This document shows positions 12,327 through 44,888 of a DNA stretch of 64,000 bases, piece after piece. The notes beneath the pieces are model-generated. The model saw only the letters and a program-made list of their open reading frames with translations. It was not told the origin of the DNA and did not search any database. The stretch spans positions 49,392 through 113,391 of the forward strand of contig JBEKOB010000002.1 of NCBI GenBank assembly GCA_049522195.1. Direction: 5' to 3'. A program made the translations under genes and the position numbers. This stretch comes from Bacteroidota bacterium. GTDB lineage: Bacteria > Bacteroidota > Ignavibacteria > UBA10030. Each line of letters begins with the position of its first letter. Within the stretch, counting starts at the first letter, position 1.

Positions 12327-12395
12327 ACTCTGTCTGAGAGTTGATGGAAGGGAAAAAGAATGTACAAAACCGCTGACCGACTTACAACCGCGCGT

Positions 12396-12436: not shown

Positions 12437-12455
12437 TGCGGTTCTTCTGCTCTGT

Positions 12456-14249: not shown

Positions 14250-14273
14250 TGAATATCCCTACAACAAAATGGA

Positions 14274-14893: not shown

Positions 14894-14908
14894 TGCTTTC
14901 CGTAGAGC

Positions 14909-15055
14909 TTACTTCTCGTCGCTTACGGTGAGCCGGCGGCGCCCCTTCGACCTGCGACGGGACAGCACTTTTCTCCCGTTTTTCGAGGCCATGCGCGCTC
15001 TGAATCCATGCTTGTTTGTCCGTTTGCGCCGATGTGGCTGGTAGGTTCGTTTCAC
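14909..15055 (-). CDS. rpmH: 50S ribosomal protein L34
   Basis: This ORF is not in the supplied track (it is below the size cutoff). I translated it by hand from the minus strand as [49 protein letters not shown]: 48 aa with a GTG start and GGAG 8 nt upstream. Coordinates are +/- a few nt. Confidence 0.8.
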
Positions 15056-18602: not shown

Positions 18603-18693
18603 CAGCATGCTGTTGGGCGAGAGAATTTGTGAAGGTAGCCCCATCTCGCGAGCCGGGAGCGGGGCTATCGCATTGTAAGCGCCATCAGGGAAT

Positions 18694-19816: not shown

Positions 19817-19845
<29 letters not shown>
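18694..19845 (+). CDS. recF: DNA replication and repair protein RecF
   Basis: 383 aa with a GTG start. Walker A GENGEGKTNLLEAISYL, the ABC-like signature, and the Walker B LLLDDIFTELD. Confidence 0.93.
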
Positions 19846-22200
<2,355 letters not shown>

Positions 22201-22247
22201 AGTAACACAGATCGTAGAAACTCTATCAGCTCTCAGCGGAAATACGA

Positions 22248-24863: not shown

Positions 24864-24992
24864 GCCTCAAGGTGGGAAAGCCACCACGCGGCGTGTCGCT
24901 GCGACCGAATAAGGCGCTGTGAAACGGCGACACAACAATTCCCGTTGTGTCATCAACTCACCAACCCCATCGTCATCATCAAGGAGAAAGCA

Positions 24993-25982
24993 ATGGAGTT
25001 CGTTGCGGGTTTCGTTGTCCTGGTGCTCATTGCTGCCCTGTTCGAGTATCGCTTCAGGAACTCGGACTACCTCATCGTCTACGAGGACAAAACCGGCCTG
25101 GCGACGCGAAAGGGACGCCTCTATCCCCGTCATTTTAGCCTTCCGATCCGGCGAACAACACATTCGTTGCAGCTGATAGTCGAGGCCACCGCAAAGGGTA
25201 ACCTTGAACTACGGGTCAAGCTTGGACTCACCGTCGCTGCAAGCCCGGACAATCTGGCCACGCTCATCCGGGTCGGGGGATGGAACGCGGATGCTGTCGT
25301 ACGGGCGGCGAAAGATCTTGAAGCTTTCTTTCTGGGAATCGTGAAGGCGTATACGGAGCAGTTTGGAATCGAGGATCTTTCCTCGGAGAAGATCCATGAA
25401 CACCTGAATCAAAAAGTGCCTGCCTGCAAAACATCGTTTGGTCTGGACGTGATCTCGCTGACGCTTCTTTCCTTTGAGCCGGTCAATCCCCAGATCTCAG
25501 AGGCCCTGAGGCAGCAGGAGCATGCCCGCATACTGGAACAGACAGAACAGCTGAACCAGAAAGCCCGCGTTGCGGCGGCGAAGGCAAAGCTGAAGGCAGA
25601 TGAAGAAATCGCCCTTCTGGAAAACGAACTTGAGCTGAAGAAATACAACCTGAAGAAGAGCCAACTCGAGCGCGAGTCGTCCCTCTCCGACATTCGCGTT
25701 GACGAAGAGCTGAAGCAAAACCGCAAAAAACTTGAATTTGACAAAGAGGAGCTTGATGTTCTTAGAAGCAGCCCGGAGCTCCTCATGCTCACACCGCAAG
25801 CAGCGCGCCTGGCTGAGGCTAGCCAGGGGTTGAAAAACGCCCGCACCATCGTATCGCTTTCTCCACAGGACCTCTCACAGGGATCTGAATTGCTGGGGAC
25901 ACTACAGAAGATTCTGCTGAGCGCCATCGAATCCTATCGTACAGAAGCGAAAAAGGCGAAAACGAAACGCCCCGTCGAATAA
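24993..25982 (+). CDS. SPFH/band-7 (flotillin-like) membrane protein with a C-terminal coiled coil
   Basis: Start at MEFVAGFVVLVLIAALFEY with AAGGAG upstream. One TM segment is followed by a band-7-like core (...GLDVISLTLLSFEPVNPQISEALRQQEHARILEQ...) and a heptad-rich K/E/L tail. Confidence 0.55.
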   Translation: MEFVAGFVVLVLIAALFEYRFRNSDYLIVYEDKTGLATRKGRLYPRHFSLPIRRTTHSLQLIVEATAKGNLELRVKLGLTVAASPDNLATLIRVGGWNADAVVRAAKDLEAFFLGIVKAYTEQFGIEDLSSEKIHEHLNQKVPACKTSFGLDVISLTLLSFEPVNPQISEALRQQEHARILEQTEQLNQKARVAAAKAKLKADEEIALLENELELKKYNLKKSQLERESSLSDIRVDEELKQNRKKLEFDKEELDVLRSSPELLMLTPQAARLAEASQGLKNARTIVSLSPQDLSQGSELLGTLQKILLSAIESYRTEAKKAKTKRPVE

Positions 25983-26029
25983 ATCACTAACCGGGGGCCT
26001 TCTCTTTGCCGAGGGGTCACGCGCACTCC

Positions 26030-29000: not shown

Positions 29001-31642
29001 TGCGGGCTGGCGATACGCGCGCCCACATGATGTCATTCTGGGGGGACTGGGATGGAAGCAATCGGCCGTCCGGTCAGGGTCACAGGCTGGTCGCTTCGAC
29101 GCTGATTGAGAATGTCAGTCACCTGGCGAAACTGCTCTCCGTTCTGCTGAACGCCGACAAGAGTATTCGAATTGCCCCGGAGCTCGCTGCTGAAGTTCAG
29201 ACATTATCAGAGAGCAATCGGCGGTTCACAAAACTGCTGAACAATATCACAGACCTGACGCACCAGCTTGAAAAGCGCTATCGCGGAATTTTGCCGTTCA
29301 GTGTAAAACCCGGAGCAGTACGAAATATCGGGATGAAGTTGCGCCTCGCGCGAGATCCACTCACGCTTCTCTGGCAGCACAATGACAGGCTGGAGCGGAA
29401 GATGGTGGATTTGCGTATCCAACGGAGAGAAACACTTGAGTACTATTTTGCGCTCAATAAGCGGCTAAGAAAACAACTCTTTGCCCTGATCCCAGTGATT
29501 CAGCAGAATATCAGCAACGAGCCGCTTTTGAGAGAGGCGTCCCTCTTCCGCGATTTACTGCAACGGATGGTGATCACCCCGCGCATCGATCAGGCGATGA
29601 TCACCACACAGGATTCGTTTGCGATCGATACCACCGTTTACAACATCTACGAAATCAACGAACTTGCTGCGAAATACGGGAACCCGGGGATCATCCTTGC
29701 CCTGCAGGTCAGCATGTCGACACAGGCGGAGGCACTGATCACGCTGGACCGCAAGTTGCGCTCACGCCGTGAGCAGGTGCTTCGAAACAATCCACAGCTC
29801 GAGCTGCCAATCATCCAGCTTATCCCGCTCTTTGAGGACCTCGATGCGGTCCGCTCGATCCCCTTGTATCTTACAAAAATCTGGGACTACGCTCTTCAAA
29901 GTCGCCGTGTTAATCAGGAGACAGCCGATCGGTTTGCGGAAATCGTCTCAGAGGTCTTCATTGCCGGTTCGGATTTGAGCCAGCAAGTTGGCCAAGCGGC
30001 GGGAGCGGCCCTGTATCGGCAGGCAAAACACGAAACGATGCTGTGGCTGGCGGAGCACCAAGTCATCGATCGGGTAAGGATGAAGATGGGAAGCGGTGAA
30101 CCAATGCAGCGGCAGGGAGGGTACTATGCGAGCATGTCCGGCGAACCCGCGTTTATGAAGACGCTCCCCGCGCAACAGCTCATTGCTTCACATCTTCATG
30201 CAGCAGCACGAAAAAGCACGCAATATGCAACAACGCCGCTCATGGGGATTTTTACGAGCGGCGACCTCCGGACACTTCAAAGCACCATCTCAGAGCAACT
30301 ACGCTATCTCCCCGTTCAGGAAATGGCGAACATTTTGTATCACCTGTGGGAGTCACAGCGAAGACATCGGAGCGACCTGATTCGCGCAGCAGAATCCCTC
30401 GTGGAAAGCCGCCTCCAGCAGAAGAAACGGGGTGAGCAAGAGCTCGAGCGACTGACGGTCGGAACAAAGGATTCTGTCTACGATCAGTTTACCACGTTGC
30501 TGACAGAAGATTTCCGGCAGATTCTTTATGGCAGGGAAGAAGATGTGGTTGGTATTCATATCATCTCTTATTTCATTGCCCGAACGATGCCTCAGTTGCG
30601 GGACCGGCCCACAATCCGCCCGACTGCCGGAGCCGGGAGCGAGCGTGGCCAGCGAATTCTCGAACAGATTGCCAAGATCATACCGCTCTCCAGACATGGA
30701 AGTCGCCTGCGCGCAATTGCTCACAACCAGGCGCAAACAGCTGTGCTGGGCTTCAACCAGCTCACAACAGGACTGTTTCGTGCCCTTGACCGATTTAGGC
30801 AACTTGAATTCAAAGAAGGGGATTCGCGATCGCTGATTGCGGATCGAGTGCTGCCTCATCTTCCGGTATACGAGATGCTTCACACACTCAGGATCTACCA
30901 TGATCCGGAGCTGACATTCCTGAAGCGGATTGAGCCGTCCTTCCCAGCCGGGACATCGGCATTTCTCGCGGTCAGAGAGGACAACGATAGCCTTCCACAC
31001 TATGTCCGACTTCTGCAACAGGAGTTGTTGCGCCGTCATGGACTCGATGTCAACGACTTCTTCGAGAACGGAACATTTACCAGAGAACTTCTTCCCTCGC
31101 TTCGGCCCGACCTGGCGGTGTTGCTCCAGGGAGATCTCTTTAACACAGATGTTGAAAAGTTGCTTGGCAACGCCCGTGGATCGATGGACGAGCGATGGCG
31201 AAAGGAAGTGAACCGCCTTCTTGCTGTGCCGGTGGAGATACGCTCATGGCGGAAAAGCATCTGGGAGTTGCTGGAGAATCCGATCACTCAACGCGTCCAA
31301 GGTTTTGTTGAGCTGGCGGTCGCATTGAATACGCTTTCGCGCAATCAGCCTTTGAAAAACGAATCCAGTCCGCTGCGAGCTATGAAGATGTCTTCCGAAC
31401 TTTCGCACTTCTTTACAGCCGCCAACTCGACAGATGACATGCGCCAATTCCTAGGCGCGGCACTGAGCTATCTTGGGGCAATTTCAGAAGGGATGGTTGA
31501 GGTTCCGGTTGCGATCGTGCGGTCGTTGAAGGAGGTGGAGAAAATCGCAAAGATTGAGGAGCAGGCGTTGTCTCCGGAAAAACAACAACTCCTTCGGTTC
31601 TATATGCTCCAGATAGCCAGACTTGCGGGAGAGAACGGATAA
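26030..31642 (+). CDS. Giant (~1870 aa) orphan multidomain protein: class-I/II PLP aminotransferase-like region fused to a divergent phosphoenolpyruvate-carboxylase-like C-terminal region
   Basis: Uninterrupted 5.6-kb ORF. The track start at 26006 is a TTG; the ATG at 26030 with GAGGGG upstream is preferred. Aminotransferase motifs: LNNPHNATG, IDDLSY about 28 aa later, SVSKTDSLAGARLA with a Lys, and a C-terminal FRLTLG Arg. PEPC-like collinear motifs: TVHPTQ, IPLFEDLDAV...IWDY, IAGSDLSQQVGQAAGAALYRQAK, MGSGEPMQRQGG, terminal Gly. Confidence 0.6.
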   Translation: MQTHAKDPLSLFRLKTLKAARVSEISETTASSAAALEERVNFHIGNPVQDVRLASAYLRIVLGVDIRREDLCDSETDNILKHLDWDAQDEPKLTFLRNLIHKSAPYTPRGGFARNNPNSLVKAFADWLQSQPEPLSYDLGQTSGRREIILATGGVEESLRVLFHALSSFLVQQPAQIFLHGPDVAIDKEAYKGLRFEKLPDDESLALRQLGEHLVRSPQVPTILIMGSILGEEARRSLRETSLDCPLFFVEANDAPNHLSLAREAKLTQRVMRVLTPAIFNNRLRDLATVFLTGNADILGIFESTHFQLKGTPSASEIELLTYLLENGSQPKPMESRSKEIVVEPSYQSLFHGVRQRNAFPVYARLLDERLGNYVARVSENLEGRIERITGKLRSIAERVEEFRSLAPFDVFAQTDTRSFLDELPRQIDSPEWQGELEQSLLQAFLKHHPEYELSRSVVVSGSSRSALGLLGFHCGIREVVVSDLSWSYEHCFPTVHPVPLTPMFALDVDAMIEAVRDRLASDEGWREFGAVVLNNPHNATGRVFDESGLKKLIAWLLDHGVWVIDDLSYQEVAPSAVLPHIKTVRQLADEIVAGGRLTKEQTARVITVHSVSKTDSLAGARLAIVEIRHEKLYRQFVQSHKHIRPNLGAIALTYLFYRNEPEIAQAYWRLRNQILRERTDALLEAVASLPRDRNPFEIDIIPPTGSLYPLLVVHRLPSGLSLDWLASGLARQGIGMLPLSTFARTEDGFDTGRKTFRLTLGGSDGAETLLKKTRRVLIDLNRLIAEESSRYNRLYSPLRSRRETTTEAQELVHTDRWKRIEEGVIAACRNASLRHYRQFRFGNLERRFCDEYVVDRLAVFKQRSLDRYRQCAQLIQEPRADAGKSLTARLERELYKDSLPRRDITFRLRTSDRTVHPTQMYSIQTERCFENIIDRLVHDESVTVSSVERAAQCLLEEYLGLNVAITSSEESDELLLDLGSMIAAENSALLRAGDTRAHMMSFWGDWDGSNRPSGQGHRLVASTLIENVSHLAKLLSVLLNADKSIRIAPELAAEVQTLSESNRRFTKLLNNITDLTHQLEKRYRGILPFSVKPGAVRNIGMKLRLARDPLTLLWQHNDRLERKMVDLRIQRRETLEYYFALNKRLRKQLFALIPVIQQNISNEPLLREASLFRDLLQRMVITPRIDQAMITTQDSFAIDTTVYNIYEINELAAKYGNPGIILALQVSMSTQAEALITLDRKLRSRREQVLRNNPQLELPIIQLIPLFEDLDAVRSIPLYLTKIWDYALQSRRVNQETADRFAEIVSEVFIAGSDLSQQVGQAAGAALYRQAKHETMLWLAEHQVIDRVRMKMGSGEPMQRQGGYYASMSGEPAFMKTLPAQQLIASHLHAAARKSTQYATTPLMGIFTSGDLRTLQSTISEQLRYLPVQEMANILYHLWESQRRHRSDLIRAAESLVESRLQQKKRGEQELERLTVGTKDSVYDQFTTLLTEDFRQILYGREEDVVGIHIISYFIARTMPQLRDRPTIRPTAGAGSERGQRILEQIAKIIPLSRHGSRLRAIAHNQAQTAVLGFNQLTTGLFRALDRFRQLEFKEGDSRSLIADRVLPHLPVYEMLHTLRIYHDPELTFLKRIEPSFPAGTSAFLAVREDNDSLPHYVRLLQQELLRRHGLDVNDFFENGTFTRELLPSLRPDLAVLLQGDLFNTDVEKLLGNARGSMDERWRKEVNRLLAVPVEIRSWRKSIWELLENPITQRVQGFVELAVALNTLSRNQPLKNESSPLRAMKMSSELSHFFTAANSTDDMRQFLGAALSYLGAISEGMVEVPVAIVRSLKEVEKIAKIEEQALSPEKQQLLRFYMLQIARLAGENG

Positions 31643-31739: not shown

Positions 31740-34163
31740 TTAGACTCCGTAGGGAACCCAGATATTCTTGACCTGAGTCGATTTAAGAAGAAGCTTTTCG
31801 CTCTTCATTCGGTACCAGTCAATCTGTCCGCCGTCGGGGACCCATGTCTGTTTCATATTACTGATGGAGGCCTCTTCAATCGCCCTTCCGCCTTCGGAAC
31901 CACCGAAGAACCAGACCGCATCGACATCTTCATGCTCAGCAAGGACTTTGGCAACGGCATCCGGGTTCTGTGCTGTGAGCATATTGATAACTCCGGAAGG
32001 GACATCGGAGTGTTGAATAATCTGGACCAGATCCATCGCTGTCATAGCATGCTTACCCGAGACTGCAACAACGGTGTTTGCCATGGCAATGGCCGGAGCG
32101 AGGATGGAGATAAGACCGAGCAACGGCGAATTGTCGGAAGCCCGCATTCCAATTACGCCAACCGGTTCGCGCAGCCCGACAACCAGCCTTCTGCCGAGCA
32201 CTGGTTGGACGGTTCCGCCAAATTTATCGGCGTACGCCCCGAATTCAAAAAGCTGACTAATCGCCTGGTCAACTTCGGCGAGCGCCTTTTCCGGGGCACA
32301 ACCCGTCTGGGCTGCGAGGCCGGCAGCGAAGCGTTCCTTCTCGGTTGCAAGATTCTCGGCCCAGAAGTAAAGGATTTGAGCCCGCAGATGAGCCGCGGAC
32401 TCAAACCAAGATGGGAATGCGGCGCGCGCAGCTTCAACAGCATTACGCACATCTTTTCTGTTCGCCTCGCCAACGACCGCAAGCAATTCACCAGAAGGCG
32501 ATGTAACCGAAAAACTCCCGGCCTGATCCGGGCGGGTAAGCTTGCCGCCGATCAGGAAACGGAAAGTGCGGTCAATGGTGGTACCGTTGCTGGTTAATTG
32601 GTGAGTGGTTGAGTGGAGAGAAGTTAATTGGTGATTGGTTAACTGGGAGGCGCTGGGTTCGGTTGGTTTCTCTTGACCGTGGTCCGTGTCTACCAGCACA
32701 TCGTACATTCCCTCGCGCCCGCCTTCGCGACCGTAGCCGCTCTCTTTATATCCTCCAAAGCCCGCAGCAGCATCGAAAAGGTTTGTTGAATTGATCCAGA
32801 TTGTTCCGGCTCTGAGCTTACGCGCAACATCCATCGCTGTGTCAATATCCTGTGACCAGATTGAAGCTGCGAGGCCATAACGAGTATTGTTGCCGAGCTG
32901 AACAGCTTCAGCCGGCGTCCGGAAGGTCAGAGTTACCAGGACTGGGCCGAATATTTCTTCCTGTGCAATCGTGTGAGAGGGTTCAACGTTGGTGAAAAGT
33001 GTCGGTGGAAGGAAAAAGCCCCCCTTCGGACAGACGACATTTTCCGGCTGCCACATCACAGCCCCTTCTTTTTTGCCAACATCCATCATCTCTGTTATTT
33101 TTTTGAGCTGTTCAGCGTTGTTGATCGCCCCCATATCGACGGCCTTGTCGAGAGGATTGCCAACCCGCAACTTGCTCATACGGCGCTTGAGACGCTTTAT
33201 GAAGTCGTCGCGAACCCCTTCCTGCACGAGAAGACGCGATCCGGCACAGCAAACCTGTCCTTCATTAAACCAGATTCCATTGACAACTCCCTCGATGGCA
33301 GAGTCCAGATCGGCGTTCTCAAACACGATAAACGGTGACTTTCCCCCCAACTCCATGGTGAGGTGCTTGTGGGATCCTGCCGTTCCCTTCCGGATGATGC
33401 GACCGACCTCTGTTGAACCCGTGAACGTCACCTTCCAGGGTGTTGGATGTTCGTAGAGCATGGTCCCGGTTTTCGAATCCCCGGTGAGGATGTTAACGAC
33501 ACCCGGAGGAAGCTTCACCTCATTCATCAGGATGTCAGCCAGCAGGAGGGCCGTCATCGGCGTCGATTTGGATGGCTTGAGGACTACCGTATTTCCAGCA
33601 GCGATTGCAGGAGCAATTTTCCAGGCAAGCATGAGGAACGGGAAATTCCAGGGAATGATTTGCGCGATCACTCCGCCGGGGCGATAGCCGGAAAATTCAT
33701 GCTCCATCGTCTGGGCCCAGCCGGCATGATAGTAGAAATGCCTGATGACGACGGGAACATCAATGTCCCTTGTTTCGCGTATTGGCTTGCCGTTGTCTAA
33801 TGATTCAAGAACCGCGAAGATGCGCGCGTGTTTTGCCACAGCGCGGGCGATCGCATACAGATAGCGGGCACGCTTGTGGCCGGAGAGAGCGCTCCACGCG
33901 GGAAACGCTGCCTTCGCCGCGTCGATAGCGGCATCAACATCTTCCTTTGTCCCCATCGCGATTTCGGCGAGCACCTCATCACTCTTTGCCGGATTGATCG
34001 TCTTGAAGTAACCGCCGTTCTTTGGCGGCTGCCACACACCGTTGATGGAATGGGAAAACTTGGAGCCGTGGGACTTGATCCATTCCCGCGTCTTGGCTTC
34101 GGATTCCGGTGCCGGACCGTAGTCAAGTTTGTCAATGAGCGAAGAGAGTTTATTGTTGTCCAT
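31740..34163 (-). CDS. Two-domain aldehyde dehydrogenase family protein (complete ALDH domain plus a C-terminal partial ALDH-like NAD-binding-type domain)
   Basis: 807 aa. Domain 1 has IPWNFPFLM, the catalytic Glu in ELGGKSP and the catalytic Cys in EGQVCCAGSRL. A low-complexity linker QLTNHQLTSLHSTTHQLTS follows. Domain 2 keeps ALDH-like Rossmann features (GVIGMRASDNSPL..., ANTVVAVSGKHA...) but has no EGQ-C catalytic half. Confidence 0.85.
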   Translation of the reverse strand: MDNNKLSSLIDKLDYGPAPESEAKTREWIKSHGSKFSHSINGVWQPPKNGGYFKTINPAKSDEVLAEIAMGTKEDVDAAIDAAKAAFPAWSALSGHKRARYLYAIARAVAKHARIFAVLESLDNGKPIRETRDIDVPVVIRHFYYHAGWAQTMEHEFSGYRPGGVIAQIIPWNFPFLMLAWKIAPAIAAGNTVVLKPSKSTPMTALLLADILMNEVKLPPGVVNILTGDSKTGTMLYEHPTPWKVTFTGSTEVGRIIRKGTAGSHKHLTMELGGKSPFIVFENADLDSAIEGVVNGIWFNEGQVCCAGSRLLVQEGVRDDFIKRLKRRMSKLRVGNPLDKAVDMGAINNAEQLKKITEMMDVGKKEGAVMWQPENVVCPKGGFFLPPTLFTNVEPSHTIAQEEIFGPVLVTLTFRTPAEAVQLGNNTRYGLAASIWSQDIDTAMDVARKLRAGTIWINSTNLFDAAAGFGGYKESGYGREGGREGMYDVLVDTDHGQEKPTEPSASQLTNHQLTSLHSTTHQLTSNGTTIDRTFRFLIGGKLTRPDQAGSFSVTSPSGELLAVVGEANRKDVRNAVEAARAAFPSWFESAAHLRAQILYFWAENLATEKERFAAGLAAQTGCAPEKALAEVDQAISQLFEFGAYADKFGGTVQPVLGRRLVVGLREPVGVIGMRASDNSPLLGLISILAPAIAMANTVVAVSGKHAMTAMDLVQIIQHSDVPSGVINMLTAQNPDAVAKVLAEHEDVDAVWFFGGSEGGRAIEEASISNMKQTWVPDGGQIDWYRMKSEKLLLKSTQVKNIWVPYGV

Positions 34164-34204: not shown

Positions 34205-34340
34205 AAACTCGAAATCCGAAGCACGAAACAAATACCAAATGCGAAATCAGAAACAACAGACGAGGGTTCTCGATTCGAATTTGTCTTTCTCGGATTTGTT
34301 TAGGATTTCGTATTTAGGTTTTCGTATCTGGTTCGTCAAC
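34205..34340. repeat. Imperfect palindromic intergenic repeat element (copy A), homologous to copy B at 44918..45090
   Basis: The left arm cgaaatccgaagcacgaaacaaatacc... and right arm ...tcggatttgtttaggatttcgtatttaggttttcgtat are near reverse complements, built from short aaatcc/ggattt and cgaaa/tttcg units. It shares about 33/40 and 20/21 nt blocks with copy B. Confidence 0.5.
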
Positions 34341-35403
34341 CCATCGGGTGATACTGTGCGTTGGAGTAATGGCCGAACGCAAGATGCCTGAGCTGGCGTT
34401 CAATATCTGTAAGCAATCCACTTGCGCCAATCCGGAAAAGGTCCGGCCTGGTCCACTCAACGCCCAACTCTTCCAGCATGAGCGTCAACCAGAGCATGGA
34501 ATCTTTGGCTGAGCGGATTCCACCGGCGGGTTTGAAACCAACCTGCCGTCCATGTAACACTCCAAGATCCATGAATCGGCGTATTTGACGGACCATCACG
34601 AGACCACCTGGAATGGTTGCGTTCGTCGGTTCGAAGCCCGTTGACGTCTTGATGGTATCTGATCCCGCCATGATTGCAACAGCCGAAGCGGCAGCAATGT
34701 TTGTTAAGGTCTCAAGGTTCCCAACACCGAGAATGGTTTTGAGCTTTGCCCTGTTGCCACACGCTTCCCGGTAGGCCACAATCTCGTCGTACAGTGATTT
34801 CCATTTGCCGGTCAAAACCTTTTCCCGACTGATGACCACATCGATCTCCGTCGCCCCTGCCTTTATGGCCAGATCAATCTCCGTGAGTTTTACCTTCATA
34901 AACGTCTGTCCGGATGGAAAACCGGTTGCCACAGACGCGACGGGTAGGCGGCCGTTGAGACACTGAACCGCTGTCTTTACCTGCGCGGGGTACACGCAGA
35001 CGGCGGCTGTGGTGATTGACTGCTGGCCGAGGCCTAATGCGCTTATGGTCTCGTGTTCCAAGGGGGCGAGCGCTTTCGCGCAGAGGCGCGCTACCCTTCC
35101 GGGAGTATCATCACCAGCGAGCGTCGTCAGATCAATACACCGGATGGCCGCCAGGTAAGCGGCAACCTGAGCTTCGACCTTAAACGTGCGGCGGGTTCCG
35201 AGCTCCACAGCCCGGGCCTCGACTGCGCTCTTGTTTACGCGAATCGATTGAACGAGGCCGGGATCGAATGGCACCGGTGCATTGGTGTGAATTCCCACAT
35301 CGCGTGTAGAACGTGATGATGATCCGGATCGTCTCTGCACAGCGGGGCTGCCTGCCCGCCTTCTCGCCGATATGGATCGTCTTGCTGAACGTTTCTCTGG
35401 CAT
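34336..35403 (-). CDS. deoC: Deoxyribose-phosphate aldolase, long (eukaryote-like DERA) form
   Basis: The core has the Schiff-base Lys region characteristic of the class I aldolase DeoC (for example AAIRCIDLTTLAGDDTPGRVARLCAKA, AAVCVYPAQVKTAV). The first ~35 residues of the ORF are an Arg/Ser-rich run. The true start may be an internal GTG near 35298. Confidence 0.75.
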   Translation of the reverse strand: MPEKRSARRSISARRRAGSPAVQRRSGSSSRSTRDVGIHTNAPVPFDPGLVQSIRVNKSAVEARAVELGTRRTFKVEAQVAAYLAAIRCIDLTTLAGDDTPGRVARLCAKALAPLEHETISALGLGQQSITTAAVCVYPAQVKTAVQCLNGRLPVASVATGFPSGQTFMKVKLTEIDLAIKAGATEIDVVISREKVLTGKWKSLYDEIVAYREACGNRAKLKTILGVGNLETLTNIAAASAVAIMAGSDTIKTSTGFEPTNATIPGGLVMVRQIRRFMDLGVLHGRQVGFKPAGGIRSAKDSMLWLTLMLEELGVEWTRPDLFRIGASGLLTDIERQLRHLAFGHYSNAQYHPMG

Positions 35404-35763: not shown

Positions 35764-36882
35764 GTGACATCAAATCCATTTCTCGGCGTCTTCTTTCATT
35801 GGCTCGGCGGATTGGCTTCCGGAAGTTTCTACGTACCGTATCGCGGTGTAAAAAAGTGGGCATGGGAAGTGTACTGGCTCGTAGGGGGATTCTTCAGTTG
35901 GATCATCGCACCCTGGATACTTGCCTCCATCAACACGAACGACCTGCTGTCGGTGCTGAAGGAAGCACCATCGGACAGCATCTTGTGGGCGTATTTCTGG
36001 GGCACCATGTGGGGCCTGGGCGGGCTCACCTTCGGTTTGACCATGCGTTACCTCGGCCTGTCACTTGGAATGGGCGTTGCCCTCGGCTATTGTGCGGCGT
36101 TTGGCACGCTCATGCCGCCGATCTTTCATGGAGAATTTGCAAGCAAAGTGCTTGGCACGCAGTCGGGCCAGGTCATCCTTCTTGGTGTCGGTGTTTGTCT
36201 GCTTGGAATTGCAATTGCAGGCCTGGCTGGTCGCTCCAAGGAAAAGGAAATGACCGATGAGCAAAAGAAGGAGACGATCAAAGAGTTTAATTTCACAAAA
36301 GGCATTCTTGTCGCAACATTTTCGGGAGTGATGAGCGCGTGCTTTGCCTACGGTCTCGATGCCGCCACACCAATTGCAGAGCTTTCAGCGAAACACGGAA
36401 CGACAGCGCTCTGGGTCGGATTGCCAAAGCTGTGCGTGGTTCTTCTCGGAGGTTTTACGACGAACTTTATCTGGTGCGTCGCCCTGAATATCAAGAACCG
36501 GACCGGATATCAGTACTTCAACCGCATGATACGCGTTGAGTCCAAGGACAAGAACAGTGGGACCACGGTTGAGCTGTCCGCAGTGCGCGCCCCGATGTTG
36601 AACAACTATCTCTTCAGCGCTCTTGCCGGGGTGACCTGGTATATGCAGTTCTTCTTCTACACCATGGGCGAAACCCAAATGGGCAACTACAAATTTTCCA
36701 GCTGGACGATTCACATGGCCAGCATCATCATCTTCAGTTCGTTGTGGGGGATTGCGCTGCATGAATGGAAGGGGAGCAGCACATCGACAAAAACAAAGCT
36801 CGCTATCGGTCTCATCACGCTTGTTCTCTCCACTATCGTTGTTGGTTACGGAAACTATCTTGGGGTTGCTGCAAAACCATGA
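35764..36882 (+). CDS. rhaT: L-rhamnose-proton symporter family transporter
   Basis: 372 aa, 10 TM. The N-terminus FLGVFFHWLGGLASGSFYVPYRGVKKWAWEVYW matches RhaT family conservation (FWH..G...A.FY.P...VKKWSWE). GTG start with AAGGAG upstream. Confidence 0.85.
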   Translation: MTSNPFLGVFFHWLGGLASGSFYVPYRGVKKWAWEVYWLVGGFFSWIIAPWILASINTNDLLSVLKEAPSDSILWAYFWGTMWGLGGLTFGLTMRYLGLSLGMGVALGYCAAFGTLMPPIFHGEFASKVLGTQSGQVILLGVGVCLLGIAIAGLAGRSKEKEMTDEQKKETIKEFNFTKGILVATFSGVMSACFAYGLDAATPIAELSAKHGTTALWVGLPKLCVVLLGGFTTNFIWCVALNIKNRTGYQYFNRMIRVESKDKNSGTTVELSAVRAPMLNNYLFSALAGVTWYMQFFFYTMGETQMGNYKFSSWTIHMASIIIFSSLWGIALHEWKGSSTSTKTKLAIGLITLVLSTIVVGYGNYLGVAAKP

Positions 36883-38366
36883 AAAAGTGGGCACCCAGAG
36901 CGCTCGTCACCCTGCTGATTCTTTACGGTGCCATGCTTATCCCCGACCCGGAGCCAAACGTCTCATTTGATGACGTACGGGGAGGCTCAAAAAAGGCATT
37001 CGCCTGGAACCAGGATGCCTTCTGGACGCAGCTGGAAAAGCGGTACGTTGAATCAAAGACCGCCGGCTGCAACAGAGTGTACCATGCGGTTGACAGCCTC
37101 CTGGCATTGGCATGGAAAAACCTTGCATTCATTCATACGAGCCCTCTCGAACCCGGAAGCGTTATCTTCAGGCAACACGAAAACCTGATCTTCGGAATTG
37201 GCTCACTGGTAGCTCCATGCCCGGATGAATTCGGGGAGTTCAAGCGACTTGTGGAAGAATCGCGCAAAGCGATCAAACGACAGTCAGAACACTGGGATAT
37301 GAACAAAAGGGAAGCGCGGGAGACTCTCTACCGGCTTCTCTACGGCGGTCGCGGTGCCGTTGAGGAGATTATGCTGCAGCTCCCGGCGGATTCGACGAAG
37401 GATCCAATTACTCTTGGCACAGATGAACCATCACAGACTCCCGGTGCGAGCATTCTTGGAGCAACGATTCACAGCGGAGACATACTTGTCTCGCGTGGTG
37501 GTGCGCCGACCTCAGCTCTGATAGCTCGGGGAAACGACTTTCCGGGCAACTTCTCTCACATTGCACTTGCCTACGTCGAACCCAAGACACGGCTCGTGAG
37601 CCTCATTGAGGCGCACATAGAGCGTGGCGTCACTATCTCAACACCGGAGCAATATATCAGGGACACCAAATTGCGCGTGATGGTCCTGCGGCTCCGCAAC
37701 AATCTTGCACAAATTCAGGCAGATCCGATGCTGCCGCACCGGGCGGCCGAGTTCGCGCTCAAGAACGCAAGGGAAAAACATATTCCGTACGATTTCAGCA
37801 TGGATTTTCAAAACGCAGACAAGTGGTTTTGCTCTGAGGTCGCCTCCTTTGCATACAAAAACTTCGGTGTTCAACTCTGGATGGGACTCTCTCATGTTTC
37901 GTCTCCCGGATTGCGAAGATGGTTAGCTGGTTTCGGCGTGGAGCACTTTGAAACCCAGGAGCCGTCAGACCTTGAATACGACCCGCAGCTCTGCGTGGTG
38001 GCGGAGTGGCGTGACCCCGAACAGCTTCGGAAGGATCATTTCGATAATGCGGTAACAGAAGCAATGCTGGAAGGTGCAGAAACGGGTGATCGCCTGACCT
38101 ATGCGTGGTATATGCTTCCCGTCGCGCGAGGAGCGAAAGCATATAGTACGGTCCTAAACCTTTTCGGAGCGGAAGGACCAATACCAGAAGGGATGTCTGC
38201 CTCGGCGGCACTGAGGAACAGGTATTACTCCGGCGAGCACACCGCAATCAACGAGGAGCTTACCCGACTGGAAGCAGATTTTAGACGGCAAAAAGGATAT
38301 GCAGCCCCATTCTGGGGTCTCATGCAGATGGCGCGTACCGCTAAGCAAACGGTTGAATCCCGTTGA
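36879..38366 (+). CDS. Secreted/periplasmic protein with a YiiX/YaeF-like permuted papain-fold (C92-type) amidase-like region
   Basis: About 495 aa from MKKWAPRALVTLLILYGAMLIP (signal). The ATG overlaps the rhaT stop (ATGA). The segments GDILVSRGGAPTSALIARGNDFPGNFSHIALAY and DKWFCSEVASFAYKNFG fit the permuted His / Cys arrangement of YiiX-family amidases. Confidence 0.45.
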   Translation: MKKWAPRALVTLLILYGAMLIPDPEPNVSFDDVRGGSKKAFAWNQDAFWTQLEKRYVESKTAGCNRVYHAVDSLLALAWKNLAFIHTSPLEPGSVIFRQHENLIFGIGSLVAPCPDEFGEFKRLVEESRKAIKRQSEHWDMNKREARETLYRLLYGGRGAVEEIMLQLPADSTKDPITLGTDEPSQTPGASILGATIHSGDILVSRGGAPTSALIARGNDFPGNFSHIALAYVEPKTRLVSLIEAHIERGVTISTPEQYIRDTKLRVMVLRLRNNLAQIQADPMLPHRAAEFALKNAREKHIPYDFSMDFQNADKWFCSEVASFAYKNFGVQLWMGLSHVSSPGLRRWLAGFGVEHFETQEPSDLEYDPQLCVVAEWRDPEQLRKDHFDNAVTEAMLEGAETGDRLTYAWYMLPVARGAKAYSTVLNLFGAEGPIPEGMSASAALRNRYYSGEHTAINEELTRLEADFRRQKGYAAPFWGLMQMARTAKQTVESR

Positions 38367-39875: not shown

Positions 39876-39984
39876 CAGATCGAGGAAAAGCAAACCACAA
39901 CGATTTTTGCTCAAAGGCAGTCAATCTTTTGCGAAGAAACATGATTTTCACAAGTTGACCCTCTTTCGGAAATGGGTTAAAACC

Positions 39985-40060
39985 CAGGAAGAGGTTGGTT
40001 AGGATTTATTGCCATGTCCTAAAGGGCGTGGCAATGGCCCCGACCTTCAGGTCGGGGAAT
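39985..40060 (+). promoter_or_regulatory. Two adjacent stable hairpins in the 5' leader of the 1572-aa secreted protein gene
   Basis: ttgccatg-tcctaaaggg-cgtggcaa (8-bp stem with one G.U) immediately followed by ccccgacc-ttca-ggtcgggg (8-bp GC stem, tetraloop). No downstream T-run, so this is not a canonical terminator. Coordinates are approximate. Confidence 0.3.
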
Positions 40061-40169
40061 AGAAGAAGAAGCAATCGGGCTTTAGCCCCATTTAAAGAAG
40101 CGGTCAACTTGAAATGATTCTTAAAGAACCACTCACATCCTCGCTCAGTAAAAAGAGAAGCATGAGATC

Positions 40170-43100
40170 ATGAGTCGCTCATCAGCGTATTGTATCGTTC
40201 TTCTTCTCCTCGCGCCTCTTGGCGCAGTCTCTCAAGCTCAATCGAAGATACCGACGAAGACCCCGGAACCAGGGCTGCTTTTCTATCTTTCCGGCGATCA
40301 CGGTTTCAATGCCGATTATTCCGCTGGGGGGACTCCCGCACCCAATTTTCTCCAAAACGTGAAAATCATTCCTGATGGAGCAAAAGGGCCCGGGTTCGCA
40401 TGCGAGGACAAACAGCTTATGTCATACTGGGCGCCTGGAAACATTTATGCGGAGAGAGGAACCCTCAGCTTCTTCTGGCGATCACGCGAGCCGGTCGGGA
40501 AGACCGAGTTCCCCATCTTTCGTGTTGGATATGCCGATCACTCCAGCTGGGATATGGTGTGGCTGCGCATCGATTACAATGGTCATGGCTTTGACGCGTT
40601 TGTGACGGATGTGAATTTGTCGCGGGTTCGAATATCATATTCACTCTCGCCGTTTCCGCGCCCAGAACAATGGATTCACCTTGCCTTGACGTGGGATGAA
40701 ACCGTTGGAATTCGCTTCTTCGTTGATGGGAAACAGATTGCCCAGAAAGACAGCGTGGTGGTGCTCTACGCGGGTCTCGACCAATTTGGGCCCCATTCAC
40801 GGATCATAAGCCCGGTCCAGGTGCAGAGTGCCTACAACTTCCAGCGGGGCGGCGACATCGATGAGGTTCGCATCTATGACCGCATGCTTTCGCCGGAGAA
40901 CATCGCCCGACTTGCCAAAGGCGGGACGGCCGGGGAGGTTCCCGTCCTGATAAGGAACCTTCAGGACGCCCGATGGAAATCGGAATGGCGATTGAGGTAT
41001 GGATGGAATCTGGATCTTCCTCCGTATCTGGATCAACCGTTTACGAGAGTGCGCAAGGTTGAAATTCAGAACGCGTACGATCTGAAACGCTGGTGGTGGA
41101 AGGGAATAGACGGAATCCGCGAGACGACATGGCCGGGCGTCTACAATCGATCGCGCCTCCCCGGGCGAAACGATTATTTTCAACTGCCCGACTGGGACTG
41201 CTATTCGCTGTCGGGAAAATCGATCACCTTCTTCATGCCCGACGAGACGTGGAACCACCTTGAAATCTCAGGCGGGGCATGGGGAACAATGACGCTGGCC
41301 GCATCGAATGAAAGCAAACAAGAACCTGACACTAGAGAGCTTTTCGCCCGACCAAAAGGGCAGGAAAAAACCGTCCATCGATTGTTGAAACCAGAGTTTG
41401 GGGGGCGACTGCAATTCAAGAATGAAGTGCAGGAGACACCTATTGGAGAGTTGTCCGCTTACAATGTTGAAGCCGGAAGCGAACCTCATGGTCTTTGCAC
41501 ACTTCGTTATTGCTTGAACGGCGGGTTAGAATCGACGAGCAATGAAGTGCAGCCCTTGATGAAATTCGTGAATGGCAGATTTCTGCCGGATGAACGGTCG
41601 GCAATGATTGCCTTGCCCGGAGCCTGGTTGCGGGAGGAACAGAGACGGGCCCCGGAGAAACATTTGCCGCTCGTACACATTTTCGTTCCCTACGATTCCC
41701 GCTCTGCAATGCCAGCGGATGTAAGCCCCGACTCCTCCTATGCGTGGGAAAAAATCAACGGTGGACTTGATGGCGTTGCCATAGATCTGCCGGCGTTGGA
41801 TCTAAAACCGATCGATGGTAATCTTATCCCTTTCAATATCCAGATAAAGGATCCTCTTTGGCCAAGTCGCACCATGCTCGATTTCTCTTTTTCTGTGAAG
41901 CCCGGCGAGGCGCGCACGTTGTGGCTTGACACGCGGGATCGAATCTTGCCAAAAGGCAAAAGTCTCTATCTGACAATTGCTTCAGCCTCTCCGGATTTTG
42001 GTCCAAACACACTCGAAGGGGCTCAAATCCGGCTTGTCTTTAAAGCGTGGAAAGAAGCATATCGTGAGCATGTTCAGGATCGGTTCAGTCAAGTTCGGGA
42101 TAACTACGCTTTTCTCGTCGAGGAGCGGCCGGATGATCCACGGTTCAATCTTTACAACCGGTTCGAGAGTGATGTCAACGATCTGCTGACTGTAGACCCG
42201 AAACACTATCCCGGTCAGAACTATTGGTACGATATCGACCATAATCATCGAAAACCACTCTTTGTGCAGCCCTCCGTGCCGGATGGAATTCCCGCCTGGG
42301 CCTTCCGCCAGATCGAAGACCTCCGGTATTTCAATCGATTTGTTCTCTGGTGGATCGATAACCGCCAGATCCAAGACGGAGAACTCGGCGGTGGGCTTTC
42401 AGATGATGACGATCTCACGAATTGCTGGCCCGGCGCCGCGCTGATGGGATGCGAACCGGAAAAGATCAGCAACGCCGTGCTCCGAATGCTGGATGCCATC
42501 TACGAAAACGGAATGTTCACAGGCGGGCTCTCAACAATCCAGACAGACGGACTGCATGCACACGAAGAGGGGATCGAAGCGCAAACGCAGGCAATGCTGG
42601 TGGACTATGGAAGCCCGAAACAGGTAGAGCGAATGATGGAAACCGTCCGCGCCCTGGACGAGAAATTGATATTGAAGAACAAAGCCGGTCACAGGCATTT
42701 TCGGTCGAGCTATTTCAGCGGCACAAAAATCGCAGACGAAGGAATCTGGGAATGGTCGCTCCAGCAACAGGAGTATTTGCTCATGGAGCCGGTTCTGACT
42801 CTGGCTGAATTCAACGGCAATCCGCGGGCGCGCCAGCTGGCGATCGATGTTGCAGACGGATTGCTGGCACATGCCAGGAAAGACAGCAAGGGGAAAATTG
42901 TTCTTGATTCAGAGATCAACTTCTCGAGCGACTCAACCAGACCGTCTCCGCTCGGAACAAAAGGAATGCTTGCTTCTAGCATGGGAGATGGTGCAACCAT
43001 CAGCACGTCGTCGGCAGCGCTTCAGCTTCTCTGGGGAGTCTATCGGATGACAGGTGAGAACATGTATCTTCAACCCCTGCTTGATCTTGGCGATGGCGTT

Positions 43101-44888
43101 CTGGGATTACTTAGTCACGATGCTCTCGACATGTTGAACCTGCGGGAATCCTGGGGAAAGCAAATCGCTGCAAGGACAACGCCGACGAAGGGAGCCGATC
43201 TGTACCGGCACATTGCCTGGCAGGTGACGGGAAACAAATCTTATCTTGAGCACTACTATGCAGACCAGGCAGAATCGTCGGCGCTCAGGGAATACATCAA
43301 CACCGAGGGATCGCTCTGGAGCGACCGGGTTTTCGCGGCGAACCGGGAATTGCAGCGCTCAAGGTTGGGAGGAGTCGCGCTTGTCCGTGGTGCCATTCAT
43401 TCTGGTCATGCCGTGAGCTGGAAGTTCAAAGCCCCCGCTACAGAACAGAGCGTTGCAATCCTCATTCCGGAAGCGACTCCTTCCGATATCAAAATTATCG
43501 CATACAACCTTGATCAGAAGCCGGTTGAAGCAACGATGACGCTCTGGAATACAGAGCCCGGTACGTGGGTGCTTGTGCAGGGGCTCGATTTGAATGGTGA
43601 TGAGGCAATCGACACGACGCTTTCAAAGCAGACAATCACCCTTGAGCGAAGCAAGAGTGTCCAGATCACCTTTGCTCCGCGCACAACAACCATCCTTGCG
43701 TTACGGCTACAATCGAAATCAACTCCCTACTCCATGCGCCCCGATCTTGGGATTGGAAGGGAAGACGTCGTCCTTGAGGGAAACACCGTGCGGGTCAAGG
43801 TGCACAGTCTTGGCTCTGTGGAAACATCGCCAACGACGGCCGCAGTCATTCATGACAGAAGGGTAATCGCTTCAGCCCGAGTGCCAGCCATCCCAGCGCC
43901 CATTGATCTCACGCCAAAATGTGTTGATGTCATCATTCCACTGCCTCCGGGGGTGAAAGCTGAAGACTGCAGTGTGGAGATCGATCCGGAAAACAGCATG
44001 AACGAAATCACACTCAATAACAACCGCGTTGATCTACAGAAGACAGATCCGACAAAGACCTTAGGCGCGCGAAGCGACCAGGTCGTCGGTCTTGCCAACA
44101 AGCCGCGCCCCGAGCATATTGCCTTCAATGTCTCGGATCCTGTCGCGGTGGCAAAGTGGTATTGCGATAACCTGGGGATGAAAATTCTTCGCAAGAGCGC
44201 CCCTCCCGCAACAACACACTTTATAGCCGACTCCGCTGGGACGATGACGCTTGAACTTTACAGAAATGAGAAAGGCCCAATCCCGGATTACTCATCGATC
44301 AGCCATATTTCAATGCACCTTGCTTTCACCGTTGATGATGTGAGCGAAGTGAAAACCCGATTTCTGGCGGTGGGCGCAAAGCTGGCAGAAGACATCGTCA
44401 CCACACCATCCGGTGACCGAATTCTCATGCTGCGCGATCCATGGGGTCTTCCTCTCCAGTTTACGGTGCGGGTGTCCCCCATGCTGAAGTCGGGGGGCCT
44501 TCGGTTCGAACATCTCGCGTTGAACGTCGCTGATCCGCAGAGCGTGGCAAACTGGTACGTTGAAAACCTGGGGATGAAGGTGGTCAGGCAAGGCGGCCCA
44601 CCTTCGTTCACGCATTTTACTGCAGATGATGGAACACATATGATGATCGAACTCTCAACCAACACGACGGCGCCCATCCTGGACTTGTCGAAGTTTAACA
44701 CCGTGTCACTCCACTTCGCGTTTATCGTAGAGGATGTCCGATCATTGCGGACGGGCTTGATTGAGGCGGGAGCAACGCTGGCGGAGGAGATTCGCGAAAC
44801 CAACGCAGGCGACCAAGTGCTCGTCTTGAGGGATCCGTGGGGTCTTCCGATTCAGTTCATCAAACGCACCGAAGCGCTGCTGAAGTAG
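40170..44888 (+). CDS. Giant (1572 aa) secreted multidomain protein: N-terminal LamG-like lectin domain, large central domain of unknown (possibly alpha-helical toroid) fold, two C-terminal VOC/glyoxalase-type domains
   Basis: Signal peptide MSRSSAYCIVLLLLAPLGAVSQAQS. LamG-like segment ...GTLSFFWRSREPVG...WIHLALTWDETVGIRFFVDGKQ. The C-terminus has two tandem ~125-aa units, each starting H(I/L)A(F/L)NV(S/A)DP..VA.WY..NLGMK(I/V)(L/V)R and ending RDPWGLP(L/I)QF, as in glyoxalase-I / bleomycin-resistance (VOC) folds. Confidence 0.7.
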   Translation: MSRSSAYCIVLLLLAPLGAVSQAQSKIPTKTPEPGLLFYLSGDHGFNADYSAGGTPAPNFLQNVKIIPDGAKGPGFACEDKQLMSYWAPGNIYAERGTLSFFWRSREPVGKTEFPIFRVGYADHSSWDMVWLRIDYNGHGFDAFVTDVNLSRVRISYSLSPFPRPEQWIHLALTWDETVGIRFFVDGKQIAQKDSVVVLYAGLDQFGPHSRIISPVQVQSAYNFQRGGDIDEVRIYDRMLSPENIARLAKGGTAGEVPVLIRNLQDARWKSEWRLRYGWNLDLPPYLDQPFTRVRKVEIQNAYDLKRWWWKGIDGIRETTWPGVYNRSRLPGRNDYFQLPDWDCYSLSGKSITFFMPDETWNHLEISGGAWGTMTLAASNESKQEPDTRELFARPKGQEKTVHRLLKPEFGGRLQFKNEVQETPIGELSAYNVEAGSEPHGLCTLRYCLNGGLESTSNEVQPLMKFVNGRFLPDERSAMIALPGAWLREEQRRAPEKHLPLVHIFVPYDSRSAMPADVSPDSSYAWEKINGGLDGVAIDLPALDLKPIDGNLIPFNIQIKDPLWPSRTMLDFSFSVKPGEARTLWLDTRDRILPKGKSLYLTIASASPDFGPNTLEGAQIRLVFKAWKEAYREHVQDRFSQVRDNYAFLVEERPDDPRFNLYNRFESDVNDLLTVDPKHYPGQNYWYDIDHNHRKPLFVQPSVPDGIPAWAFRQIEDLRYFNRFVLWWIDNRQIQDGELGGGLSDDDDLTNCWPGAALMGCEPEKISNAVLRMLDAIYENGMFTGGLSTIQTDGLHAHEEGIEAQTQAMLVDYGSPKQVERMMETVRALDEKLILKNKAGHRHFRSSYFSGTKIADEGIWEWSLQQQEYLLMEPVLTLAEFNGNPRARQLAIDVADGLLAHARKDSKGKIVLDSEINFSSDSTRPSPLGTKGMLASSMGDGATISTSSAALQLLWGVYRMTGENMYLQPLLDLGDGVLGLLSHDALDMLNLRESWGKQIAARTTPTKGADLYRHIAWQVTGNKSYLEHYYADQAESSALREYINTEGSLWSDRVFAANRELQRSRLGGVALVRGAIHSGHAVSWKFKAPATEQSVAILIPEATPSDIKIIAYNLDQKPVEATMTLWNTEPGTWVLVQGLDLNGDEAIDTTLSKQTITLERSKSVQITFAPRTTTILALRLQSKSTPYSMRPDLGIGREDVVLEGNTVRVKVHSLGSVETSPTTAAVIHDRRVIASARVPAIPAPIDLTPKCVDVIIPLPPGVKAEDCSVEIDPENSMNEITLNNNRVDLQKTDPTKTLGARSDQVVGLANKPRPEHIAFNVSDPVAVAKWYCDNLGMKILRKSAPPATTHFIADSAGTMTLELYRNEKGPIPDYSSISHISMHLAFTVDDVSEVKTRFLAVGAKLAEDIVTTPSGDRILMLRDPWGLPLQFTVRVSPMLKSGGLRFEHLALNVADPQSVANWYVENLGMKVVRQGGPPSFTHFTADDGTHMMIELSTNTTAPILDLSKFNTVSLHFAFIVEDVRSLRTGLIEAGATLAEEIRETNAGDQVLVLRDPWGLPIQFIKRTEALLK

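Follow-up and report, generated by a model that had tools for sequence, protein, structure and literature searches.

Carbohydrate-active enzymes built on an (α/α)6 barrel, such as the six-hairpin glycosidases and the epimerases of the AGE superfamily (with glycoside hydrolase (GH) families GH76, GH47 and GH127), carry this barrel between an N-terminal β-sandwich with a long linker helix and a C-terminal β-sandwich. Proteins of the VOC fold, such as glyoxalase I and the YaeR/SMU1112c proteins (2p25, 3l7t, 1f9z and maize GLX1, 6bnn), consist of paired βαβββ modules with His, Glu and His as metal ligands. KdgF, a small protein with a metal site whose gene neighbors those of polysaccharide-degrading enzymes, ring-opens (linearizes) the 4,5-unsaturated monouronates that arise from pectin and alginate (PMC11381880). 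Here we describe a 1572-residue exported protein with likenesses to these systems, encoded in a 64,000-nucleotide stretch (hereafter the window) of contig JBEKOB010000002.1 from an Ignavibacteria member of the Bacteroidota. It combines a large core, which contains a LamG domain and a helical barrel, with two tandem VOC domains at the C-terminus.

The core shares the barrel fold and its flanking elements with the (α/α)6 enzymes and is likewise secreted and encoded in glycan-utilization loci, but it is far larger (1270 residues), has a LamG domain at the N-terminus, shows no sequence or profile similarity to these enzymes and has a conserved motif set of its own. The VOC repeats have the paired modules and the His, Glu and His residues at the ligand positions in common with glyoxalase I and YaeR/SMU1112c, and the tandem mimics their dimer or two-domain monomer; in contrast to these proteins, the repeats have Gln at the position of the fourth ligand, score far below the cut-offs of the glyoxalase I and YaeR models, carry their own RDPWGxPxQ signature and are exported, either within the giant protein or as a lipoprotein. 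As to KdgF, a KdgF-like cupin gene directly follows the core gene in Acidobacteria, and elsewhere a VOC protein is the adjacent or fused partner. The cupin and VOC folds are unrelated, and a functional equivalence would be an analogy from gene position alone. Nothing relevant to the architecture or the family was found in the literature searched.

Architecture and spread of the core family

The gene is the single long open reading frame (ORF) of its region of the window; it runs from 40170 to 44888 on the plus strand, starts with ATG and comprises 1572 codons. Pfam recognized Laminin_G_3 (PF13385; residues 129–246, E = 6.5e-11, 43 bits against a cut-off of 27.6) and two stretches of Glyoxalase (PF00903; residues 1315–1431 and about 1449–1562, E = 1.1e-26, 94 bits against a cut-off of 20.6). 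PF18029 also scored above its cut-off on the VOC region (E = 6.5e-21), and a match of CARDB to residues 1199–1286 was weak and below the cut-off (E = 0.0094). The original prediction, made from the DNA sequence, had proposed an exported protein of this length with a LamG domain and a tandem of C-terminal VOC repeats. The ORF coordinates are exact, both VOC repeats and the LamG domain score above their Pfam cut-offs, and LamG is further recognized as a jelly roll in the AlphaFold2 model and through LamG-like matches in Foldseek. Export agrees with the signal peptide read from the sequence, which is conserved across lineages: all relatives examined have a comparable N-terminal signal, followed by the conserved mature start EPGLLFYLSGD. 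Inspection of the N-terminus of the 1572-residue protein revealed no lipobox, and a Pfam scan of the same protein gave no match to Por_Secre_tail, the C-terminal signal of the type IX secretion system (T9SS).

A large protein database contained one identical protein (P0001) and 29 further clusters with 62–88% identity, all with LamG and two VOC domains and with lengths of 1536–1606 residues (one exception, 1497 residues). These 30 clusters originate from JGI, ENA, NCBI and Logan assemblies, and the named ones are metagenome-assembled genomes of Ignavibacteriales/Bacteroidota. Since length and architecture are the same in independent assemblies, the ORF and the fusion lie far beyond chance or artefact. 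Below the fused clusters follow thousands of VOC-less proteins of about 1250–1300 residues, which are 52–60% identical over the first 80% of the query and terminate at ...NNRVxL, the point where the linker of the window protein starts. In one relative (locus L093; related loci are designated by L and a number), with 70% identity and the same downstream genes as in the window (DUF192/MacB), the VOC pair is a separate ORF with a 4-nt overlap with the core stop codon. The split falls in the linker between core and VOC pair, and because the likeness to the window's linker extends 5' of the ATG in the VOC frame, the simplest reading would be a frameshift, either real or due to a sequencing error, in a gene that was ancestrally fused. 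A mis-assembled fusion had been expected to show itself by a stop or frameshift in other assemblies; such a split does occur in this one relative, but the 30 clusters keep one frame. Although the separate VOC ORF of L093, with its conserved synteny, is what an assembly or frameshift artefact joining two genes would predict, this explanation is already largely refuted by the continuous frame in the identical protein and the 29 clusters from four sources, and by the frameshifted appearance of L093 itself; we give it hardly any weight.

The core, as the term is used here, comprises about 1270 residues (signal peptide, LamG, β-sandwiches, barrel, β-sandwich and Ig-like domain) and is VOC-less in most relatives. 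A scan of one genome per species found core relatives in at least 552 species genomes. Named among the matches listed are Terracidiphilus, Granulicella paludicola DSM 22464, Telmatobacter bradus DSM 23630 and Edaphobacter, and the same list holds Pyrinomonadaceae, Bryobacteraceae, Opitutaceae/Nibricoccus/Lacunisphaera, Ignavibacteria, Rikenellaceae and Latescibacterota. When 1.84 billion representatives were searched exhaustively with HMMER, 1378 clusters (at 50% identity) had E ≤ 1e-3 and 379 had E ≤ 1e-30; the clusters include paralogous families of about 1250 residues with 28–34% identity. Across phyla the core is 50–60% identical over 1270 residues. Among 96 core sequences from several phyla 160 positions are invariant, and these are dense in the LamG domain, the loop that follows it and the barrel; together with the signal, this pattern is what would be expected of an exported enzyme. 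The loop (residues 307–344, DGIRETTWPGVYNRSRLPGRNDYFQLPDWDCYS) is highly conserved yet modeled with low confidence. As judged from sequence, the core is a very widespread and strongly conserved family that is described by no current Pfam, NCBIfam or PDB entry, and the main novelty is this family itself, less the VOC fusion. In some loci the big protein has tandem paralogues, that is, two or three adjacent LamG/CARDB proteins of about 1150–1290 residues with 24–30% identity (L009, 10001–21193; L083, 6896–14509; L095, 10001–17860); the array in L009 is preceded by a protein with a T9SS tail and followed by a two-domain cupin.

AlphaFold2 modeling of residues 25–1200 with 96 aligned relatives gave a predicted local distance difference test score (pLDDT) of 84.5 and a predicted template modeling score (pTM) of 0.85. 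The center had been described as one uncharacterized domain of about 900 residues; it is indeed unmatched in Pfam, but the model divides it into several domains (Table 1), with a long linker helix that leads from the β-rich region into an all-helical domain. For this barrel alone (residues 610–1085) the pLDDT was 92.9 and the pTM 0.91, and a Foldseek search against the PDB returned only (α/α)6 enzymes among the top matches, with a probability of 1.0. The matches comprise glucose and cellobiose 2-epimerases, GH76, GH47, YihS and GH127, and all are weak (E ≥ 1.8e-4, template modeling (TM) scores of 0.4–0.5, root mean square deviations of 7–10 Å). At the level of fold, and as modeled, the barrel is a six-hairpin (α/α)6 toroid, in line with what the original prediction had guessed for the helical part. 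Its family-wide motifs are WWIDNRQ, GGGLSDDDDL, LHAxEEG, GHRHFRS, TEGSLWxDR and LQRxRLGG.

Other searches left the barrel without a family. Foldseek of the full 1176-residue model against the PDB returned only LamG-like neurotoxin (Hc) domains, matched by the LamG region, and was uninformative on the center. Residues 260–1300 matched nothing among the PDB sequences, neither with phmmer nor with the family profile, and the barrel had no match in Pfam, NCBIfam or the PDB sequences. A Pfam scan of 36 distant relatives for a recurring weak family likewise gave no match for the barrel and returned only LamG and CARDB, the latter in 24 of them (best E = 3.2e-9). Alignment of the family profile by hhalign with a neighboring GH88 protein and a heparinase II/III-like protein showed no relation. 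Overall, the barrel was not assignable to any described GH, polysaccharide lyase (PL) or AGE family via Pfam, NCBIfam, or PDB sequences and structures. On balance, it is slightly more probable than not that the barrel is catalytic.

The VOC pair and its association with the core

By profile score the two repeats belong to the VOC superfamily (PF00903), and they can be aligned with each other over about 124 residues. In glyoxalase I the four canonical ligand positions are His on β1, Glu on β4, His on β5 and Glu on β8. The corresponding positions are almost fully retained in the 30 fused relatives: in repeat 1, H1316, E1362, H1383 and Q1430 are kept in 29, 30, 30 and 30 of them, and in repeat 2, H1448, E1494, H1515 and Q1562 in 30, 30, 30 and 29 (one gap). 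Fused and unfused members share the invariant signature EH...E...H...RDPWGxPxQ...R. The VOC profile aligned with glyoxalase I in the PDB, with the invariant Gln exactly on the last metal ligand, the catalytic Glu; His/Glu/His is retained, and the position of the fourth ligand is an invariant Gln throughout this subfamily. The top match was the maize GLX1 entry 6bnz; its sequence shows Gln at the fourth-ligand position, in contrast to the Glu of 6bnn and 5d7z, presumably through an engineered E→Q mutation. Of the metal-ligand residues that the original prediction had proposed to check, His/Glu/His are present, but the set is not that of a canonical glyoxalase.

All NCBIfam matches of the VOC region were below threshold. 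The closest named family, SMU1112c/YaeR (NF050075), scored 53 bits against a cut-off of 140, and membership was rejected on this score; the glyoxalase I models were far below their cut-offs (TIGR00068, glyox_I, 26.8 against 120; PRK10291, 19.1 against 246), and an identity as glyoxalase I (lactoylglutathione lyase) was rejected on these scores and on the replacement of the catalytic Glu by Gln. In VOC proteins each metal site is assembled from two modules, and some VOC enzymes, such as methylmalonyl-CoA epimerase, are known to use Gln as a metal ligand. Because the sites need two modules and the best profile matches are to the two-domain maize glyoxalase I, we infer that the tandem forms an intramolecular, covalent pseudo-dimer, like the plant two-domain enzyme.

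VOC and core genes were found in five arrangements, all with the RDPWGxPxQ signature: the fused pair of the 30 clusters; the overlapping separate ORF of L093; a single convergent VOC gene 82 nt downstream of the core (L097); a lipoprotein with two VOC domains encoded 3 kb downstream of the core (L072); and a stand-alone VOC gene immediately upstream of the core gene (L091 and 11 Opitutales loci). The stand-alone proteins of this last arrangement have about 129 residues and are 37–45% identical to the window's repeats. The VOC fusion is one lineage-specific version of this recurrent gene association. It had been called unusual, and this is borne out: most members of the VOC subfamily are stand-alone proteins of about 129 residues without a signal peptide. 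Export is a feature of the fusion and of the L072 lipoprotein, while the unfused VOC proteins of the Opitutales and L097 lack a signal peptide. An outside-cell detoxifying module, as first suggested, is harder to sustain because the unfused VOC partners elsewhere look cytoplasmic. A stand-alone VOC beside the core in L007 and L008 was considered as a Rosetta-stone partner and rejected as a different, PhnB-like VOC; in these loci it follows the big gene and the PCC gene (L007, 14673–15149) and is probably unrelated to the RDPWGxPxQ subfamily.

In nine acidobacterial loci the core gene is directly followed by a gene for a 114-residue cupin. The best PDB matches of this cupin are KdgF proteins (7zyb, 1e-15; 5fpz, 5fpx and 5fq0, about 6e-13), and it also matches a 'cellulose oxidative enzyme' (9bwf, 3.6e-11).

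Gene neighborhoods and other features of the window

The neighbors of the gene in the window were compared by tblastn with 89 related loci, and crude ORF calls of these 90 loci, window included, were clustered. The most frequent neighbor of the core is a small LamG protein of about 235 residues, found in 19 of the 90 loci (some of them duplicate contigs) and in four lineages (Ignavibacteria, Opitutales, Pyrinomonadaceae and other Acidobacteria); among solved structures it is closest to the carbohydrate-binding module of an extracellular arabinanase (5hon, 9e-7). Orthologs of the PCC protein adjoin the core in Ignavibacteria relatives and in L007 and L008, and RhaT is also found near the core ortholog in L001–L003 and L013. 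Together with RhaT, the aldehyde dehydrogenase and the DeoC-type aldolase of the window may form a rhamnose or deoxy-sugar catabolic module.

The catabolic clusters that contain the core are related to pectin or uronates. In Pyrinomonadaceae (L004–L006) the cluster comprises GH43-esterase, GH2, small LamG, DUF6298, core, GH95 and GH28. In an Ignavibacteriales locus (L072), KduI (427 bits against a cut-off of 250) and a KduD-like short-chain dehydrogenase/reductase (SDR; 352 against 369) are accompanied by a GH140-like apiosidase, a carboxylesterase, a heparinase II/III-like protein with DUF4962, the core and a lactonase, and also by an HbpS-like protein, the two-VOC lipoprotein, a GFO/MocA oxidoreductase and a small LamG. 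L095 contains KduI, an SDR in the KduD position (recognized by Pfam only), apiosidase, carboxylesterase, heparinase-like protein, core, core paralogue and GH28. In Acidobacteriaceae (L054/L075) a KduD-like SDR, core, cupin, heparinase-like protein, TonB-dependent receptor and small LamG lie together, and L094 holds a TonB-dependent receptor, GH43-esterase, Pec_lyase, small LamG, core, carboxylesterase, pectinesterase and GH88. GH78 rhamnosidases were found in two loci, and FGGY kinases likewise in two. Co-location with pectin or uronate genes was thus found in L004, L072, L094, L095, L054/L075 and the nine cupin loci and is not universal. The genomic context agrees with the carbohydrate-directed role that had been suggested for the protein.

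Table 1. Features of the window protein and of its neighborhood, with positions in the window.
Feature	Residues	Position	Strand	Basis or remark
Signal peptide, MSRSSAYCIVLLLLAPLGAVSQA, then QS	1–23	40170..40238	+	Sec type, read by eye from sequence
LamG/concanavalin-A-like jelly roll	~36–246	40275..40907	+	Pfam PF13385; AlphaFold2 strands at residues 36–236
β-sandwich region	~291–626	41040..42047	+	AlphaFold2 secondary structure, invariant columns; no Pfam match
(α/α)6 barrel, presumed catalytic	~627–1069	42048..43376	+	AlphaFold2, Foldseek, family motifs
C-terminal β-sandwich	~1082–1183	43413..43718	+	AlphaFold2 strands
Ig-like, CARDB-like domain, end of conserved core	1199–1286	43764..44027	+	Weak Pfam CARDB
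Linker, core to VOC pair	1291–1312	44040..44105	+	Poorly conserved in 30 fused relatives
VOC repeat 1	1313–1435	44106..44474	+	PF00903; PDB sequence matches 2p25, 3l7t
VOC repeat 2	1445–1568	44502..44873	+	PF00903, PF18029; aligns with maize two-domain glyoxalase I and E. coli GlxI
Small secreted LamG protein, 235 aa		38581..39288	+	Pfam PF13385, 1.2e-16
Secreted PCC-domain protein, 182 aa		39327..39875	+	Pfam PF03479, 1.3e-16
RhaT L-rhamnose/H+ symporter, upstream, context only		35764..36882	+	Pfam PF06379, 7.7e-73
Aldehyde dehydrogenase, 807 aa, with unassigned ~320-aa C-terminal extension		31740–34163	-	Divergent from RhaT
DeoC-type aldolase		34336–35403	-	Divergent from RhaT

Further observations concern the surroundings of the gene. 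An HbpS-like/GlcG protein (PF03928) recurs beside small LamG, PCC and VOC genes in Ignavibacteria loci (seven loci, some of them duplicate contigs; for example L001, 8113–8598, and L072, 13074–13703). Between RhaT and the small LamG gene lies a 533-aa ORF (36765–38366, plus strand), which as called overlaps the end of RhaT; its true start is likely at codon 39, at the membrane anchor MKKWAPRALVTLLILYGAMLIP, and it had no Pfam or NCBIfam match and no homolog in the 89 related loci. An 1878-aa protein (26006–31642, plus strand) has a class I/II aminotransferase at residues 444–772 as its sole recognizable domain, which leaves about 1500 residues unannotated; it is conserved, with 67% identity, near the core ortholog of a related Ignavibacteria genome (L001, 21359 onwards). 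The spacer that separates the PCC gene from the big gene (294 nt, 39876–40169) is strongly structured (minimum free energy −93.3 kcal/mol, z = −4.2 against shuffles), with two perfect hairpins, UUGCCAUGUCCU...GGCGUGGCAA and CCCCGACC-UUCA-GGUCGGGG. Rfam gave no match to it, and in L001 the orthologous spacer measures just about 94 nt; the structure could be a REP-like (repetitive extragenic palindrome) insertion or an attenuator. Promoter, terminator and Rfam scans around the big gene gave nothing above background. The window also contains the chromosomal replication-origin region (14250–17430, with flanks from 8968 to 25000), with mnmG, mnmE and yidC on the minus strand and dnaA (15551–17038), dnaN, recF, gyrB and gyrA on the plus strand; the G+C content dips to 0.457 at 16–18 kb, where the cumulative GC skew has its minimum.

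Proposed role and alternative explanations

It is likely that the window protein is a carbohydrate-active protein of pectin-type glycan use. The more specific proposal that we favor, at slightly less than even confidence, is a secreted enzyme from a new family of carbohydrate-active proteins, acting on pectin-type glycans, with the VOC pseudo-dimer processing the sugar acid released. The LamG domain and the separately encoded small LamG would hold a pectin-type plant polysaccharide that contains uronic acid and rhamnose, and the (α/α)6 barrel would cleave the bound polysaccharide, as a hydrolase or a lyase. The two VOC domains would pack as a covalent pseudo-dimer with a His/Glu/His (+Gln) metal site and convert the small sugar-acid product of the core, for example by ring-opening or isomerization of an unsaturated or keto-uronate. 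This reaction is the most economical guess for the VOC pair because of the KdgF-like cupin at the neighboring position in Acidobacteria and the presence of KduI and KduD in the clusters. That the VOC pair acts on a sugar-derived small molecule is a tentative proposal, and a KdgF-like reaction in particular, drawn by analogy, seems unlikely to be the exact one. It is doubtful, though conceivable, that the core founds a new GH or PL family directed at a linkage of the rhamnogalacturonan RG-I/RG-II type and that the VOC pair is the first VOC-fold enzyme of glycan catabolism, a metal-dependent, non-homologous analog of KdgF for an unsaturated or keto sugar acid, exported together with the enzyme that produces its substrate.

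Several findings weigh against the proposal of a pectin-directed enzyme with a VOC partner. The window's own gene has no recognizable pectinase beside it (nearby are only RhaT, the aldolase and the aldehyde dehydrogenase), and many acidobacterial and some other loci (the Terracidiphilus type, L096) lie in a housekeeping context without carbohydrate-active enzymes. The likeness of the barrel to known (α/α)6 enzymes is at fold level only (TM 0.4–0.5), and the Gln in place of the catalytic Glu of glyoxalase I could mean that the VOC domains are catalytically inactive. The core is always exported and the unfused VOC proteins of the Opitutales and L097 lack a signal peptide, which would place the VOC domains in different compartments in different lineages; this is easier to reconcile with a small diffusible substrate than with a polymer. 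Finally, in L090 (7001–8159) and L092 (7001–8104) the VOC gene adjoins a small LamG gene near pyrH-frr while the core gene is absent, so that part of the Opitutales VOC signal is inherited synteny. The core gene missing between VOC and small LamG in these two loci could have been lost or relocated.

The Gln also bears on a reading in which the VOC pair is non-catalytic, either binding or sequestering a metal or ligand (of the bleomycin-resistance type) or serving structure or oligomerization, and the core does all the chemistry. Such a role would agree with the invariance of Gln in all members at the position where glyoxalase I has its fourth ligand and catalytic base, with the same residue in the best PDB match, the presumed mutant 6bnz, and with the distance of all NCBIfam enzyme models from their cut-offs. 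However, the invariance across phyla of His/Glu/His and of some 20 other polar residues (N, D, R, W) speaks for a specific site, be it active or ligand-binding; Gln does ligate the metal in methylmalonyl-CoA epimerase, and the cupin that takes the neighboring position in Acidobacteria has a true enzyme, KdgF, as a relative. We consider a non-catalytic VOC pair unlikely. The core, for its part, could be a non-enzymatic surface protein that binds glycans or acts as a scaffold (a lectin-like adhesin, or similar to surface glycan-binding proteins) and presents glycans or partner enzymes, as its LamG and Ig-like domains, the recurrent small LamG partner and the absence of detectable homology to any GH or PL family might suggest. 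Identities of 50–60% over 1270 residues, with invariant clusters of Asp, Glu, His and Arg in the barrel, are nevertheless typical of catalytic domains, and the order of β-sandwich, helical linker, barrel and β-sandwich is, as a match at fold level, that of many glycoside hydrolases and lyases; a scaffold is in our view quite improbable.

The chemistry of the VOC pair, and of the cupin elsewhere, might also be oxidative or aromatic-ring-cleaving and directed at phenolics esterified to pectin (ferulates) or at the polysaccharide itself. Genes for carboxylesterases or BD-FAE (feruloyl-esterase-like) proteins recur nearby, the acidobacterial cupin matches 9bwf, and there are weak NCBIfam matches to the 4HPPD and HpaD dioxygenases. 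These dioxygenase models score far under their cut-offs, though, the 2-His-1-carboxylate triad of extradiol dioxygenases has its carboxylate where Gln stands here, and the cupin matches KdgF better than 9bwf, with KduI and KduD in the same loci, so that we regard oxidative chemistry as very improbable.

The protein is probably a secreted, carbohydrate-active multi-domain protein of the (α/α)6 kind, and its conserved VOC partner or fusion is unprecedented. Its core family, with at least 552 species genomes and about 900 residues without a Pfam model, is among the larger conserved unannotated protein blocks found, and it is present in phyla that dominate the turnover of plant litter in soils and peat (Acidobacteriota, Opitutales and Ignavibacteria). 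The finding would be much less important if the core merely bound its ligand and were no enzyme. A concrete, testable handle on the product of the core is offered by its VOC and cupin partners, and a role of VOC proteins in glycan catabolism, if true, would extend the known chemistry of the VOC superfamily. If the core is indeed a pectin-active enzyme, the family would fill a gap in how these organisms degrade complex pectins.

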